From the IMG/VR virus record IMGVR_UViG_2563366822_000004: a stretch of DNA of 6,706 nt; one strand, given 5' to 3'. The translations under genes and the position numbers were made by a program. This document shows positions 1,546 to 6,706 of this stretch, in pieces. The notes under the pieces were generated by a model. It was not told where the DNA came from. It saw only the letters and a list, made by a program, of their open reading frames with translations, and did no database searches. Positions within the stretch are counted from its first letter, which is position 1. Every line of letters begins with the position of its first letter. The DNA comes from a virus. Taxonomy: Duplodnaviria; Heunggongvirae; Uroviricota; Caudoviricetes.

Positions 1546-1748
1546 AACCTCACTCCCAGCGGACGACGGCGACGTCGGGTTGTCCCCAGTACCGACTCCG
1601 CATCACTGATCGCCCGGTTAAGCTCATCCAGAGAAGCCACCGTATATTCAATTCTGCGACCATCTTTCTGGACAGACACCACCCGTTTACCGGTTAATAA
1701 ATCAAGGCGCGCCTGACGCAGCGCCTGCAGTTCAGCGACTGTAACCAT
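1542..1748 (-). CDS. W: Head-tail joining / head completion protein (lambda gpW-like), 68 aa
   Basis: ORF-track protein [36 protein letters not shown]... resembles lambda gpW (68 aa, recalled motif LMTGKRVATVQKDGRRVEF). A GGAGGAG Shine-Dalgarno lies just upstream of the ATG at 1748. Its TGA stop overlaps the portal ATG (ATGA junction at 1542-1545), as in lambda W/B. Confidence 0.85.
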   Translation of the reverse strand: MVTVAELQALRQARLDLLTGKRVVSVQKDGRRIEYTVASLDELNRAISDAESVLGTTRRRRRPLGVRL

Positions 1749-3660
1749 TCACTCCTCCGGACAGCTTCGCTGCCAGTTCTTTAAGGGTTGGCCGGGTCGT
1801 CTCTTCTTCCCGGGATTTTGCCAGTACAGCCAGATCAAGCTGCCAGCGTTGCACGGACACACGTAATGCCGCGTAGGCATACACCAGGCAGTCCAGCGCT
1901 TCGTTACGCCGCTTTTTGTTATCCCACAGCAGACGCATCTTTCCTTTTTCCCACTTCTCCACAAGCTCTTCCGCCACCAGTTGCTGCGCCTCTGTCTGCG
2001 AAAAAATCTCCGGATCATCAGGAAAACGGATGGCATACGACGTGGCTTCATCCGCAGGAGTGGGATCGGCTTTCATACGGGCATAGAGAATTTCTTTTGC
2101 GGTGTCCGTCCCCACTTCACACAGATACACGCCCCGCTGATTGCGGGTTTTCGGCATGGTGATCACCGGCTTGCCATAGACAGATGCGCCTTTTACCGGC
2201 AGCACCCGGAAAACACCGTGTTTTTTTGACCTCTGATAGACAATTTCACCATCGATCCCCCCGGTGTCCCAGCAGACACGGGAAATGGTCATTTCGGTTC
2301 CGTCTGCATGGCAGTATTTTTTGTTGATCGCCGCATCCACACGTAACAGCGTCTCTTCCTCATCGGGACGGCCCATAATGATGATTTTATCCACCAGAAA
2401 AGCTTCCTCTCCCGGAGCCCATCCCCAGACATACATCTCAAAACGGTTTCGCTGCGAGTCAATGCCCGCCGTCAGATAAACCACCCGGGAAGGCACCGCA
2501 GCCGTGTAACGCACAACCTTATCCATCAGCACCTGGTGATCGAGTTTTTCGCCCACGGCCTCTTCCCAGGTCTCGCCCAGCGTGGTGTTCACAAAGGTTT
2601 TCAGGCCGTTGGGATCTTTCAGTGCATCCAGCCAGTCATAGACAATCTGTACCCAGGTGGTGAACGGACTGTACGCCGTCCAGATATGGAATGTGATGGA
2701 GCGCGGCGGCGGAATTTCATTATCCGCGGCGCTGAAAAATGTCAGACCGTCACGAGTCCACATGCCCGTGTTTTCACAGATCCACCGCCCGTTACTCTGG
2801 TCAAGCTCAGACTGATGGATCACACAGCCATGATGCTCACAAAGGTAGAAAACACTTTCTGGCTTATTCTTCTCCCACTTAAGACCGAAAGGCGAGGCAT
2901 CATCGCCAAATTTCAGATACTGCTCCTCCCCACAGTGCGGACAGGGCACATAAAAACGCATGAAATGTGCCGACTCGTTAGCGGCTTTTTCGATCTGGCA
3001 GGAGCCTTTGATTTTAGGCGTCGAGCCGCGAATGGATTTTGGCCATACAGAGCCCTCAATACGTTTATCCCCCAGCAGGGTTGGCGAACCCTCTTTTTCA
3101 ACATCCGGTTCGAACGAGGAAAGCTCGTCATAACAAACCACATCCACGGATTTTTCACGGTAGTTTTTTGCTGCCGCTCCCCCCAGACACCAGAAACCCA
3201 CACCGGAGGAAAAACGCTTCAGGGTGAGCGTATTATCGCGGTGTTTTCTTCCGAACCATGGAGCCAGCTCCAGCAATGCAGGAACATCCCTTATCGTTGG
3301 CTCAACATGAGATTTCATAAAATCTTCAGCAGCTGAGTCCGTGGGCTGAAAAAGAAGGCTGTTGCGTGATTTATGCTCAATAAAATAAGCCTCCACTCCC
3401 AGCAACATCTTTGTATAACCAACACGGGCAGATTTAATCAGGTTAACAGTGCGAATCAAATCGTTGCCCATACAGTTCATGATGCCAACCTGAAACGGCA
3501 GTGTTTCCCACCGCCCCGGGGTATAAGACGACTCTTTAGGAAGGTAATAATGTTTATTGGCCCACTGAACTGTCGTCAGTGGAACAGGAATAATGAGAGA
3601 TAAAAGCCCTGTAGCTATCGCACCGGCTGCATTAGCTGCCTTCTGTGCGTCTGAAATCAT
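1732..3660 (-). CDS. A: Terminase large subunit (lambda gpA-like), ~642 aa
   Basis: The track ORF 1732..3702 contains [67 protein letters not shown] and [14 protein letters not shown], colinear with lambda gpA as recalled. Start chosen at the ATG at 3660 (MISDAQ...), which gives a lambda-like length and a ~29-nt overlap with the Nu1 3' end; the in-frame ATG at 3702 is an alternative. Confidence 0.95.
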
Positions 3661-4180
3661 CGATCCACCCGCCCACGTTTTCACCGGCCTTAGCTGCAAC
3701 ATTGGAGGCTTTCGCGATTTCAGTTTTCACCACATCAAGGTGTGATGGTGAAATGTCCGGATATTTACGCTGTAATGTCAACGGCACACGCACAAGTATC
3801 CCCGAAATCTCCTGTGCCACACGTTGCAGAATGAAGGTAAACAGTTCAGTTTCCAGCACCACTCCGTCTTCACGGGCATTTTTCAGTTCCTGCGCATCTG
3901 CCTGCGCTTTTGTGAGCCGGTAGCGTTCATAGTCAATGGTGCCGGGTTGTAAATCTGACTCCGCTGCCGCACGCAAATCGGCCAGTTCTTTGCGGAGCTT
4001 TTCGTTTTCGATATCAGTTTCCCTCTGCGCATACCACTGAATTGCCATGGCAGTATCAAATACAGATTCAATGCCCTTACTGCCTTTGGAGACGCAAGGG
4101 AGCCCCTGAGACTGCCAGCGTTCAATCGTCCGCGGGTCCACGTTAAAAATTTCGGCAAGCCTCTTTTTATTAACCTTCAT
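3632..4180 (-). CDS. nu1: Terminase small subunit (lambda Nu1-like), ~182 aa
   Basis: Translation [36 protein letters not shown]...[48 protein letters not shown] is colinear with lambda Nu1 (MEVNKKQLADIF...[47 protein letters not shown]). The track ORF begins at a TTG at 4204; the ATG at 4180 matches the lambda start and sits ~176 nt from cosN, as in lambda. Confidence 0.93.
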
Positions 4181-4204
4181 AGAACAACCCATTATCAAAT
4201 ACAA

Positions 4205-4355
4205 GGCCCGACATGAAAACGCCAGAAAAAGGCATTTTCGGACACTTTCATGTCGGACATTTATGAATGCAATATTAAAAAAAACAAAAAGTTATATTCG
4301 AGAAGTACCGACACGATTTTCCCTGAAAAATTTTCATAAATAGTGAAAAACCGCG
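4205..4355. promoter_or_regulatory. cosB-like terminase-binding region between cosN and Nu1
   Basis: Perfect 11-bp inverted repeat CCGACATGAAA (4208-4218) / TTTCATGTCGG (4246-4256), 27-bp spacer, at the position where lambda has its inverted R2/R1 sites. A related motif (CGTGTCGG on the minus strand, about 4304-4316) sits where R3 would be. The ~45 nt next to cosN closely match lambda; the R-site region does not. Confidence 0.6.
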
Positions 4356-4367
4356 AGGTCGCCGCCC
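4356..4367 (-). other. cosN: 12-nt cohesive-end sequence identical to lambda (GGGCGGCGACCT on the minus strand)
   Basis: Plus-strand AGGTCGCCGCCC at 4356-4367 is the exact reverse complement of the lambda cohesive end. The flanking minus-strand sequence CTCGCGGTTTTTCACTATTTATGAAAATTTTTCAGGG closely matches the lambda left-end sequence as recalled. Confidence 0.88.
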
Positions 4368-4420
4368 CGTAACCGGTCGGATCGCCGGAAAGGACCCACG
4401 AAATGATAATGATTATCATC
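4368..4420 (-). other. Phage right-end sequence next to cosN, expected to contain cosQ
   Basis: Minus-strand GATGATAATCATTATCATTTCGTGGGTCCTTTCCGGCGATCCGACCGGTTACG is near-identical to the last ~50 nt of the lambda right end as recalled. It includes the near-palindrome ATGATAATGATTATCAT (4402-4418). The exact cosQ boundaries are not resolved here. Confidence 0.5.
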
Positions 4421-4479
4421 TATATAAGGTTTATCACAACATGTGTGTACGCCATCAAACCACGAGAAATAATCAATTA

Positions 4480-4512
4480 TGACGCAGGTATCGTATTAAT
4501 TGATCTGCGTCA
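4480..4512. promoter_or_regulatory. Candidate operator: perfect 8-bp inverted repeat TGACGCAG-N17-CTGCGTCA upstream of the RHH-like gene
   Basis: Read directly from the sequence (4480-4487 and 4505-4512). It lies 60-95 bp upstream of the 4574 start codon in an AT-rich stretch with -10-like hexamers (e.g. GATAAT at 4535-4540). Confidence 0.3.
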
Positions 4513-4573
4513 AATTAACGTAAAAGCAACTTCTGATAATACAAATCAGCAACACTGAATATGGGGAAACATT

Positions 4574-4759
4574 ATGTCATCAAAGAACAGAACGCGCAGA
4601 ACAACAACCCGCAACATCCGATTTCCAAACCAGATGATTGAACAAATTAACATCGCTCTTGATCTGAAAGGTTCAGGAAACTTTTCAGCGTGGGTTATTG
4701 AAGCCTGCAGAAGAAGGCTGTCAACAGAGAGTTCGGGTATGAATTACATAATTAAGTAA
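4574..4759 (+). CDS. Small ribbon-helix-helix-like DNA-binding protein (61 aa), conserved prophage protein of unknown function; possibly DUF3950 / YlcI-like
   Basis: ATG at 4574 with GGGGA Shine-Dalgarno ~6 nt upstream. Sequence MSSKNRTRRTTTRNIRFPNQMIEQINIALDLKGSGNFSAWVIEACRRRL fits the Arc/CopG/MetJ pattern: basic N-terminal tail, a short beta-strand (IRFP), then two helices. Position (next to cos, opposite strand to nu1) matches my recollection of ylcI beside nohD in E. coli DLP12; that assignment is from memory and unverified. Confidence 0.6.
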   Translation: MSSKNRTRRTTTRNIRFPNQMIEQINIALDLKGSGNFSAWVIEACRRRLSTESSGMNYIIK

Positions 4760-4891
4760 CATGGTGTTCACAGAACACGCAGTTACCGGACACATCAGTT
4801 TTCCATTCGCTCCCTGGCAGTACAGGCTTCCCCTCTGACGGGATAGCCTGAAAAAATAACGCAGAAAATTATTTGTTATAATTAATATAAC

Positions 4892-5032
4892 TTACTCAAA
4901 AAAAAGCGACGAGAAAATCAGCATCAACGAACAATAAGCGCCAATACGTGATAACAAATGGCAGCCATATTTATCTGCAGTATAAGCAATGGACAGGATA
5001 ACCACACCAGAAACCGTCAGCATAAAATCCAT
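4892..5032 (-). CDS. Hypothetical small hydrophobic protein (46 aa), speculative
   Basis: Below the ORF-track size threshold; found by manual translation: MDFMLTVSGVVILSIAYTADKYGCHLLSRIGAYCSLMLIFSSLFFE, two hydrophobic stretches. GGGGAAG lies 5 nt upstream of the ATG at 5032. Sits in the AT-rich region, convergent with the 4574-4759 gene. No homology recognised. Confidence 0.22.
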   Translation of the reverse strand: MDFMLTVSGVVILSIAYTADKYGCHLLSRIGAYCSLMLIFSSLFFE

Positions 5033-5382
5033 TTGAACTTCCCCGGACAAAATCGACTCATCTAAAGATTTACAGCTCTTTTTATTATCAATATGTTAAA
5101 AGTAAAATAAACAGATGTTCAATAACACGAATACAAAAACGTGCTGAAATTCAATGAATCCATTTCTGTGTCATCAATTAATAGTGATAAACATCCGGCT
5201 TCTTCCACCATCGCACCGGACAGGCGACTATGAGGGGACAACGCCGCGCTCCGTTAACGCGGTAAACCCCGGTGTGTATCGTTTTTGATTATCCCCGCAC
5301 ACTCGCGCAGAGGAGTCTCCCGGTCGGGCTGCGGTCTCTGTTAATGCGGGGATACGGCGACAATACCGCGCATCAGCAAAAC

Positions 5383-5850
5383 TTATTTCAGGCACTGAGT
5401 GCGGATATATTCCTGCGCCACTTCCAGCTGCTTCTGCATCAGCATCAACCGCTCTCTGAGAGTGAAATAATCCCGTTCAGCGGTGTCTGCCAGTCGGGGG
5501 CCGGTTGCATTATCCACGCCGGAGGTGGTGGGGGCTTCACGCACGGTACCGGGGCAGGTGGCGTTGATCCGCAGGCGCTTACGACCAGCGGCAACGTCAG
5601 CGCGCAGAGTTTCATTTTCAGCTCTCGCATCGGCTAATTCCCTCGAGTATCTGGCATCAAGTGCAGCAACATCACGCTGGCGCTGCTGCATATCAGTAAT
5701 GGTTGCATTTGCCTGCTCCAGCTCACTGACTTTTTTATCGCGCTGCTCTTTGTAGGTTATGGCGTTATCACGGTAATGATTCAGCCCCAGACTAAGCGCA
5801 CCACAGGCCACCAGCAGGGCAATGATGACCACGCACAGTACGCGGTTCAT
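5383..5850 (-). CDS. Rz: Spanin, inner-membrane subunit (i-spanin, lambda Rz-like), 155 aa
   Basis: MNRVLCVVIIALLVACGALSLGLNHYRDNAITYKEQRDKK...DMQQRQRDVAALDARYSRELADARAEN...VAAGRKRLRI...TTSGVDNATGPRLADTAERDYFTLRERL is colinear with lambda Rz as recalled (AVNHYRDNAITYKAQRDKN...RQRDVAALDAKYTKELADAKAEN...SPRLADTAERDYFTLRERL). N-terminal transmembrane segment present. Confidence 0.93.
   Translation of the reverse strand: MNRVLCVVIIALLVACGALSLGLNHYRDNAITYKEQRDKKVSELEQANATITDMQQRQRDVAALDARYSRELADARAENETLRADVAAGRKRLRINATCPGTVREAPTTSGVDNATGPRLADTAERDYFTLRERLMLMQKQLEVAQEYIRTQCLK
5445..5630 (-). CDS. Rz1: Spanin, outer-membrane lipoprotein subunit (o-spanin, lambda Rz1-like), 61 aa, embedded in the +1 frame of Rz
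   Basis: MRELKMKLCALTLPLVVSACGSTPPAPVPCVKPPPPPAWIMQPAPDWQTPLNGIIS has a lipobox (VSAC) and the proline-rich stretch CVKPPPPPAWIMQP..DWQTPLNGIIS, near-identical to lambda Rz1 as recalled. Nested entirely within Rz, as in lambda. Confidence 0.9.
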   Translation of the reverse strand: MRELKMKLCALTLPLVVSACGSTPPAPVPCVKPPPPPAWIMQPAPDWQTPLNGIISLSESG

Positions 5851-6148: not shown

Positions 6149-6496
6149 TTATCTGTCGATTCCCCAGCACGCCAGCGCGCTCTCCTGGTCACGACGGGAT
6201 ACCTGACCGTAACAGTTATTTGAGCGAATACGGCAGTCTCTGCCACCGTCCTTAATCCACCAGCGAATCGCCTCACACGCTCCCCTGCGATCACCTGCAT
6301 TAATTCGTTTATAAAACGTCGACGGAAAACACTTACCGGGGCCAATGTTGTACGGACAGAATGACGCGATCCCCGCTTTCTGGGGTTCACTCAATGGCAC
6401 TCTGATGTTTTTCTCCACCCATGCCAGCGCCTTATCACGCTCAATGGCGTTAACCCGGTCGCATTTTTCCTTCGACAACTTCATGCCCGGAACGAC
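6149..6496 (-). pseudogene. R: Phage endolysin (lysozyme family), 3' fragment; N-terminal ~55-60 residues removed by the IS insertion
   Basis: Minus-strand translation ...VVPGMKLSKEKCDRVNAIERDKALAWVEKNIRVPLSEPQKAGIASFCPYNIGPGKCFPSTFYKRINAGDRRGACEAIRWWIKDGGRDCRIRSNNCYGQVSRRDQESALACWGIDR matches the C-terminal two-thirds of lambdoid lysozyme-type endolysins (phage 21 R-like). Upstream of codon V at 6496 the frame runs into IS sequence and a stop at 6529-6527; no N-terminal signal-anchor region or catalytic Glu region is present in the window. Confidence 0.85.
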
Positions 6497-6706
6497 TGAA
6501 GTGGTCAACAAAAACTGGCCACCGAGTTAGAGTTTTTCCAGTATCGATTTTCCGATTCGTTTGGGGGTAATCCACCGTTATATTCGTGCGGTCTTAGTGC
6601 GCTGTAATATCCAACGATATAGTCCGTTATGGCGTGAGCTGCCTCGCTGAAGCTTACGTAACCCACCACCGGCATCCATTCGTTCTTCAGACTCCTGAAG
6701 AAGCGT
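6497..6706 (-). mobile_element. IS3-family insertion sequence, terminal ~210 bp (IS911-like right end); element continues beyond the window end
   Basis: The sequence starts with TGAAGTGGTCAACAAAAACTGGCCACC at 6497 (TG...CA-type IS3-family terminus) exactly where endolysin homology ends. The minus strand encodes a transposase C-terminus that ends inside this terminal repeat, as is typical of IS3-family orfB. IS911 identity is from memory of the terminal sequence, not a search. Confidence 0.8.
6505..6706 (-). CDS. IS3-family transposase OrfB (DDE integrase), C-terminal 66 aa, partial
   Basis: Minus-strand translation RFFRSLKNEWMPVVGYVSFSEAAHAITDYIVGYYSALRPHEYNGGLPPNESENRYWKNSNSVASFC ending at the TGA at 6507..6505. 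The FFxSLK...E and RPHxxNGGL(S/P)P motifs are the conserved C-terminal signature of IS3-family OrfB. Confidence 0.85.
   Translation of the reverse strand, partial: RFFRSLKNEWMPVVGYVSFSEAAHAITDYIVGYYSALRPHEYNGGLPPNESENRYWKNSNSVASFC

Follow-up and report, generated by a model that had tools for sequence, protein, structure and literature searches.

Beside a lambda-type cos site, the viral genome fragment IMGVR_UViG_2563366822_000004 (Caudoviricetes) carries a small gene, at 4574..4759 on the plus strand, that encodes a 61-amino-acid protein of the DUF3950 or YlcI/YnfO family. (Positions refer to the window, that is, the whole stretch of 6,706 nucleotides that we analyzed.) This protein is likely to be a DNA-binding regulator with a ribbon-helix-helix (RHH) fold, and on balance we favor the view that it represses its own promoter, and possibly a divergent promoter, and that it is made in the prophage state. 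How the family may work is best indicated by its distant relatives in integrase-AlpA-primase islands, where the gene faces palindromes at conserved positions over two divergent promoters. A preliminary description of this DNA had also proposed that a palindrome upstream of the gene, at 4480-4512, is the operator of the protein; we consider this doubtful.

A family of small proteins with a predicted ribbon-helix-helix fold

The open reading frame (ORF) starts with ATG, 206 bp to the right of cosN, and runs on the strand opposite to the late genes; it is the sole plus-strand gene in the cos neighborhood of the window. A Shine-Dalgarno-like GGGGA (4563..4567, plus strand, read from the sequence) lies 6 nt before the start codon. 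The sequence and the domain hits bear out the preliminary description, which had noticed this ORF, its ribosome-binding site, and its orientation, and confirm that it is a real gene. Furthermore, third-codon positions are the most variable (44 versus 27 and 22, from noisy ungapped counts), which fits a translated gene under purifying selection.

The protein matches DUF3950 (Pfam PF13132) at residues 21-49 with 67.5 bits (E = 9e-19; the curated cutoff is 25 bits) and YlcI_YnfO_N (NCBIfam NF041551) with 35.2 bits (cutoff 30), and it also matches phrog_949. PF13132 is matched by all 19 members of our alignment of relatives, and the identical gene appears in RefSeq as a "YlcI/YnfO family protein." The family that had been suggested is thus the correct one, and a narrow one: at E ≤ 0.001, we found 106 representatives (at the 50% identity level) among 1.84 billion proteins. 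The members from E. coli K-12, ylcI and ynfO, adjoin the Nu1 homologs nohD and nohA. The window copy has a different and shorter C-terminal tail than they do, with no difference in kind. In the searchable full-text literature, DUF3950, ylcI, and ynfO receive only incidental mentions (in mutation tables, annotation lists, and an excludon list), with no functional study, as the preliminary description had expected.

The predicted layout of the protein is a basic N-terminal arm, a strand with the sequence NIRFP (residues 14-18), a helix (19-32), a turn (GSGNFS), and a second helix (37-55), with a tail that is variable beyond about residue 50. A single-chain AlphaFold model (built with 19 sequences; predicted local distance difference test score of 74.8) has helices at 19-32 and 37-55, after the conserved N-I-R-F-P. 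The predicted strand and two helices resemble solved RHH domains in their geometry. Between the predicted helices, K-G-S-G-N-F-S-A-W fits the RHH turn motif (G-x-S/T/N, which caps the second helix), and NFS is kept in most of the aligned relatives. Across relatives that are 33-79% identical, residues I15, R16, I25, F37, V41, and C45 never vary, and F17, W40, and A44 hardly do; these residues fall in the strand, the core of the first helix, and the second helix.

Against this assignment, the NIRFP segment is not modeled as a strand in the AlphaFold prediction, and profile methods do not link DUF3950 to the curated RHH families. None of the 19 members matched the RHH, Arc, or CopG models of Pfam at E ≤ 10, searches of PDB by sequence and by profile gave nothing relevant, and Foldseek against PDB returned only NikR (E = 2.8). 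When the protein was aligned to Arc with hhalign, the register set NIRFP on NLRWP, but the probability was 3%, which is not significant. So, of the fold that had been proposed from the sequence, the two helices and the turn motif stand and the profile link is missing; because of this missing link, we regard the predicted RHH fold as well supported structurally but not proven.

The closest parallels are other small RHH regulators. Like Arc and Mnt, from the immI region of phage P22, the DUF3950 proteins are about 50-80 residues long with a basic N-terminal arm, are phage-encoded, and lie inside or beside late genes. The strand motif of the family, N-x-R-[FW]-P, aligns with N-L-R-W-P of Arc in the hhalign register, and, as for Arc and Mnt, several candidate operators lie over divergent promoters in the satellite-type relatives that are described below. 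In contrast to Arc and Mnt, the window copy has no antirepressor gene under its control, has no significant sequence or profile similarity to them, and has only a candidate operator. The RHH domains of CopG and of CopA_SO (the antitoxin of prophage CP4So, PDB 6iya) share 10% sequence identity with the window protein; unlike them, it has no toxin or replication-gene partner here and has a signature of its own (IRFP...NFSAWV..AC). In kind, then, it appears to be an ordinary small RHH regulator and a catalogued member of its family.

Divergent relatives in integrase-AlpA-primase islands

Relatives of 33-60% identity were found at 38 divergent loci in other Enterobacterales and in one Pasteurellaceae genome. 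In 17 of the 38, there is an integrase gene no more than about 4 kb downstream; these loci are from Serratia, Xenorhabdus, Proteus, Arsenophonus, Rahnella, Brenneria, Pectobacterium, and Klebsiella. Genes for AlpA and AntA recur in these islands, and a gene for a D5-type primase (similar to P4 alpha) recurs upstream. A contig that was fetched independently repeats this layout, with a primase of the Toprim type. In these islands, the DUF3950 gene is alone on its strand and stands head-to-head with an operon that ends in the primase gene. Judging from their gene content, the islands seem to resemble P4-like satellites or phage-inducible chromosomal islands, and the link between them and this family appears to be new.

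To describe the control regions, we aligned 14 of the upstream regions and scanned them for repeats. Three palindromes (O1, O2, and O3) lie at conserved positions over two divergent promoters. O1 (GGTG-N6-CACC) is at about -107 and is followed by a 9-bp gap; O2 is at about -84, with O1 and O2 about 23 bp apart. O2 directly abuts an invariant GTCAA, which on the other strand is TTGAC, the -35 element for the leftward operon. The spacer of this leftward promoter is O2 itself, and its -10 element abuts O1. After GTCAA comes a T-rich stretch and then TGTATAGT, an extended -10 element at about -40, which is overlapped by O3. The outer GTG/CAC triplets of the palindromes are conserved, and their centers are specific to each lineage: TGTGCGCACA is found three times in Klebsiella and in Rahnella, TGTTTAAACA is found in Xenorhabdus, and GGTGCACATACACC is found in Serratia and Pectobacterium. 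A subgroup in which the strand reads K-N-I-R-F-E-D has TGGTACGTACCA, i.e., TGGTAC(G/C)TACCA, twice, 33 bp apart, with the second copy over the start codon. In several of the islands (L049, L060, L054, L071, and others), the leader of the divergent operon contains, in the stretch from the operators to where that operon starts, a G+C-rich hairpin that is followed by a T-run (on the DUF3950 strand) at about -165 to -125.

We infer that this architecture is the signature of an autoregulated repressor with co-evolving operators on two divergent promoters. The position of these distant members, each a lone, divergent small regulator before a replication operon, would be analogous to that of the master repressors of satellites, such as Stl of the Staphylococcus aureus pathogenicity islands and the immunity system of P4. 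(Stl is a helix-turn-helix protein and P4 immunity is RNA-based, and neither is homologous to DUF3950.) Unlike those systems, the copy described here belongs to a lambdoid prophage of the helper type and not to a satellite.

In the model that we favor for the window protein, its basic arm and T-R-N-I-R-F-P strand would pair with those of a second subunit to form a two-stranded sheet that reads the major groove, the two helices would form the core of the dimer, and the short C-terminal tail would be a variable appendage. The protein would bind near its own promoter, as a dimer or a dimer of dimers, and this sequence-specific binding would repress that promoter and possibly a divergent one too. 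Expression would occur in the prophage state rather than as part of late lytic transcription: the gene is antisense to the late operon, at the junction of the lysis and packaging genes, so it is likely to be made when late transcription is off. According to a published list, the transcripts of ybcW and ylcI overlap convergently in at least 50% of E. coli K-12 RNA-seq samples (PMC12288877), which implies that ylcI is transcribed. A review of prophage transcriptomics gives cI, rexAB, lom, and bor as the genes expressed in lambda lysogens and does not name the homolog of the 61-amino-acid gene (PMC7067206).

The region between cos and the gene

The inverted repeat for which an operator role had been proposed is exactly where the preliminary description placed it. 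It is a perfect 8-bp repeat with a 17-bp spacer, TGACGCAG-N17-CTGCGTCA (4480..4512; arms at 4480-4487 and 4505-4512, 8/8 matching). A second perfect 8-bp repeat, ATCAATTA-N17-TAATTGAT (4472-4479/4497-4504), is interleaved with the first at the same spacing, can be extended to 13-nt arms at 85% complementarity, and hardly varies among lambda-type loci. The compound repeat at 4472-4512 has two 16-bp units at -102 and -77 from the ATG. A third perfect repeat, ATGATAAT/ATTATCAT, is at 4403-4419. When we shuffled the 206-bp intergenic region while preserving its dinucleotides, just 9 of 2,000 shuffles (0.45%) had two or more perfect repeats (8 bp or longer, with a spacer no longer than 30 bp). The region itself holds three, so it is non-randomly rich in dyad symmetry.

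Two other observations concern this region. First, the non-coding block at 4464..4563 is about as conserved as the coding region (by column conservation across 98 distinct sequences, with a filter that biases columns 4475-4489). Second, at one recombinant locus (L085), the left junction lies immediately before ATCAATTA, and everything from ATCAATTA onward was kept. Upstream conservation, the richness in dyads, and this boundary are the points from the window that support an autoregulated repressor. As read from the sequence, the candidate -10 hexamer of the gene's own promoter is GATAAT (4535..4540, plus strand; GACAAT in lambda), which begins 39 nt before the ATG, or about where the extended -10 element TGTATAGT is found in the satellite-type relatives. 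The best candidate site for the protein in the window would be the compound repeat, which is just upstream of this weak -10 element.

Several findings weigh against this picture. A single 8-bp repeat is not significant on its own, as 199 of the 2,000 shuffles (about 10%) had at least one perfect repeat. Across 169 related lambda-type loci, the right arm of the 4480-4512 repeat is perfect in about 23%, is CTGCATCA (7/8 matching) in about 70%, including lambda, and is CCGCATCA (6/8) in about 6%, and the left arm never compensates. (These shares are approximate because some contigs were fetched twice.) Where an autoregulated repressor might have repeated operators over its promoter, the window has only the compound repeat, which is imperfect in most alleles and whose units, unlike those of the satellite-type relatives, are not direct repeats of one palindrome. 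A scan for consensus promoters on the plus strand of 4400-4573 found no promoter; for lack of a match to a -35 element, it passed over GATAAT. The 16-mer has no second copy in lambda or in the window, and its 8-mers occur elsewhere at about the chance rate, so no other target is suggested. It is also conceivable that the island palindromes serve a different regulator.

The main argument against a general role for the palindrome as an operator is that it is confined to one type of upstream DNA. Among 108 further viral contigs, the DNA upstream of the gene is of the lambda-cos type in 100, of a type with an HNH gene in seven, and of an unrelated third type in one. In the HNH-type phages, and at one locus that adjoins a fragment of a tape-measure gene, the upstream DNA is unrelated to that of the window and lacks the palindrome, even though the protein is at least 90% identical over residues 1-50, and we found no motif in common between the lambda-cos type and the other types. 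So either autoregulation is not general among these phages or the site is elsewhere. The homology of the window to the HNH-type phages begins at about 4565, at the ribosome-binding site. Between the chance level of the single repeat, its imperfection in most relatives, and its absence from HNH-type phages, the evidence for the proposed operator is weak, and the proposal is partly contradicted.

The palindrome could instead form an RNA hairpin in the late transcript (the minus strand of the window, which is the rightward strand of lambda), between the lysis genes and cos, with the gene as described above. Such a hairpin might act in the processing or stability of the transcript, or as a weak barrier to non-antiterminated transcription into the terminase genes. 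The late strand of 4462-4522 folds to -15.8 kcal/mol (z = -3.8), and its lambda counterpart folds to -18.0 kcal/mol (z = -2.9), while the gene-sense strand folds less well (z = -1.8 in the window and -0.6 in lambda). On the late strand, every cell (100%) of an 11-bp core helix is paired across 16 distinct variants, and a U-rich sequence follows the outer stem. Read on that strand, one core polymorphism turns a G-C pair into G-U and the other turns an A-U pair into G-U; on the gene-sense strand, both would be C-A or A-C mismatches. The polymorphisms thus seem to fit a late-strand hairpin at least as well as they fit an operator. However, there are only two such transitions, both one-sided, a coincidence with odds of roughly one in four, and no double compensatory change was seen. 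A shuffle control of the pairing was uninformative, and the outer helix is 86% paired and not conserved. With its large loop and with the U-run apart from the core stem, this is not a canonical terminator, and no terminator appeared in the output of our scan. Rfam gave only chance-level matches in 4200-5400, and we know of no function for the hairpin region in the literature on lambda cos. We consider the hairpin rather unlikely as the explanation of the palindrome, and for the protein itself we continue to favor an autoregulated RHH repressor.

A few other candidate features of this region were rejected. We could fit the window repeats to the GTG-N6-CAC scheme of the islands by using TCA/TGA half-sites, but the spacing was inconsistent, and this would be over-fitting. 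ATGACGC seemed to be a shared motif, but it lies at about -190 in BP-4795 and is not conserved in the relatives of that phage. A 51-codon ORF (4403-4558, plus strand) spans the palindromes and has probably been annotated more than once. It matches phrog_9395 at 1e-39, which shows only that it was annotated before. In lambda it has 37 codons, about 22% of its changes are synonymous (a noisy count), and none of the frames has a codon-position bias among its distinct variants, so it is probably non-coding.

Between cosQ and the gene lies TGATAATGATTATCA (4404..4418), a perfect Fur-box dyad of the 7-1-7 type. It is conserved in lambda. As it is 163 bp before the ATG of the DUF3950 gene and at a similar distance from Nu1, the gene may be iron-regulated, and the dyad may be part of the same control region. 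In E. coli K-12, the homologous sites upstream of nohA and nohB are published Fur sites, with a gel shift to confirm the one at nohA (PMC2189734). A promoter-like site on the minus strand (4439-4412) points to cos and has its -10 element inside the Fur box; we rejected it since its spacing hangs on a 7-bp difference from lambda and is not conserved.

Genomic contexts and other roles considered

The gene is part of a conserved mosaic unit (4464-4720, or about 110 bp of upstream sequence and codons 1-49) that we found in 4,168 of 5,426 complete E. coli genomes; a single genome can hold as many as 12 copies. In K-12, ylcI (in DLP12) and ynfO (in Qin) have 89% DNA identity to the window over 4467-4708, upstream repeats included. 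The lambda homolog has 64 amino acids (complement of 48109-48303) and is not annotated as a coding sequence in the RefSeq record, NC_001416. That record instead has a weaker GeneMark ORF, lambdap79 (47738-47944), and the curated record of phage 434 annotates the homolog. In both phages, the gene lies between cos and bor and is co-directional with bor. Stx-type phages, BP-4795 among them, encode the same protein (with at least 90% identity over residues 1-50) between Rz and an HNH-TerS-TerL module; in the BP-4795 type, the gene is head-to-head with HNH, with 41 bp between the start codons. Thus, the position at the lysis/packaging junction and on the opposite strand is conserved, and the neighbor and the upstream DNA vary. 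The preliminary description had placed the family next to Nu1-like genes, which is true of lambda-type loci but is only one of its several contexts.

Outside of phages, single chromosomal members occur in Salmonella, Pantoea, and Tatumella. In Salmonella enterica subsp. arizonae and diarizonae (L043 and L044, ~4001-4171), the gene lies between a sopB-type gene for an inositol phosphatase of the type III secretion system, with its chaperone, and pipD (a C69 dipeptidase), a setting like that of Salmonella pathogenicity island 5. The Pantoea member is beside cydDC-like genes, and the Tatumella member is between genes for malic enzyme and a CitMHS transporter. About 37 of 80 "genome" loci (assigned to Streptomyces, Pseudomonas, Flavobacterium, and others) matched the right end of lambda at about 95-100% identity. 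These loci (L006-L038, L040, L042, L059, and L070), along with many ENA proteins from contigs of about 3.5 kb, look like contamination with a sequencing control or spike-in. Such lambda DNA inflates the apparent taxonomic range and diversity of the family, so we excluded these homologs.

Because the phage copies always lie at the lysis/packaging junction, beside Nu1 or HNH-TerS, the protein might instead modulate or block packaging (for example, of a superinfecting phage or a satellite) by acting on DNA near cos or on the small terminase subunit. Besides this location, two rare fusions suggest such a role: in two 90%-identity clusters (P0193 and P0260), DUF3950 is fused to a Terminase_2-type segment (E = 1.7e-6). 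A possible analogy is a Listeria prophage in which an unrelated 65-amino-acid protein, made by the lysogen, blocks packaging via terminase (bioRxiv 10.1101/2025.02.27.640495). However, the window gene is antisense to the late transcript that is active during packaging, and the palindrome is 113-145 bp from the nick site, outside of cosQ, cosN, and cosB (with cosQ positioned from the phage 434 annotation). Also, in the satellite-type islands, the gene lies among promoter-overlapping palindromes in a regulatory region, away from packaging genes, and other members of the family are in non-phage chromosomal contexts. We judge a packaging role to be quite improbable. The fusion proteins have 129 amino acids, with the Terminase_2-type segment at the N terminus, and at one locus (L286, 4714-5103) the gene order of the island is integrase, a 69-amino-acid protein, the fusion, a 116-amino-acid protein, and primase.

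It is very improbable that we are dealing with an orphan type II antitoxin (or a protein that mimics one), whose RHH domain would be a remnant of a toxin-antitoxin pair and would neutralize a toxin encoded elsewhere: a weak PHROG match to HicB-like antitoxins (E = 0.012) and the variable, antitoxin-like C-terminal tail are offset by a tail of only about 10-30 residues that coincides with a mosaic recombination boundary and by the lack of a match to PADLOC, and the reading fails its defining test because no adjacent, co-directional, toxin-sized gene is found in the window, lambda, 434, BP-4795, or about 40 diverse loci. The absence of a partner in the window's list of ORFs had already been noticed in the preliminary description, and it extends to these other loci. 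PADLOC's models of defense systems also gave no match at E ≤ 1.

As a whole, the window is a stretch of lambdoid prophage around cos, in the reverse of the standard lambda orientation. To the left of the gene, on the minus strand, are W (1542-1748, Pfam gpW), terminase A (1732-3702, Pfam GpA), and Nu1 (3632-4204, Pfam Phage_Nu1), followed by the 12-nt cohesive-end sequence AGGTCGCCGCCC (4356-4367, read from the sequence) and cosQ (4391-4397, transferred from the curated record of phage 434). To the right, also on the minus strand, are Rz/Rz1 (5383-5850) and then a lysozyme gene. Downstream of Rz and convergent with the DUF3950 gene is a 46-codon hydrophobic ORF (MDFMLTVSGVVILSI..., 4892-5032, minus strand), which is annotated as hypothetical in RefSeq and has no match in PHROG or PADLOC. 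The nearest matches in complete genomes are prophages of E. coli O104:H4-like strains, with 99.7-99.8% identity over 4340-5400. The lysozyme gene lacks its 5' end (ORF 6149-6511 covers only positions 27-125 of the Pfam model), while that of the O104:H4 prophage is intact at 177 codons; from 6512 to its end, the window matches the end of an IS911-like element (IS3 family) with 100% identity.

We also considered a broader and unlikely scenario, in which DUF3950 proteins are the master switch repressors of the integrase-AlpA-primase islands of Enterobacterales. The copy beside cos would then be a helper-encoded homolog, made in the lysogen, that cross-talks with satellites, or it would silence transcription into cos and terminase from the Fur-controlled region and so protect the chromosome from being cut by terminase. 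If the protein does control transcription at cos or talk to satellites, then there would be an extra layer of regulation at the lysis/packaging junction. If it is merely an autoregulated accessory regulator of prophages, then the finding is an ordinary one. Either way, lambda, the best-studied temperate phage, carries a conserved 64-codon gene 200 bp from cos that NC_001416 does not annotate, and 1-12 copies of it are present in about three quarters of the complete genomes of E. coli. Its absence from the annotation of lambda, its ubiquity in E. coli, and the switch-repressor layout of its satellite-type relatives make it of experimental interest, and the RHH assignment and the switch position in the islands give an experimental handle on two genes of the E. 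coli "y-ome," ylcI and ynfO.

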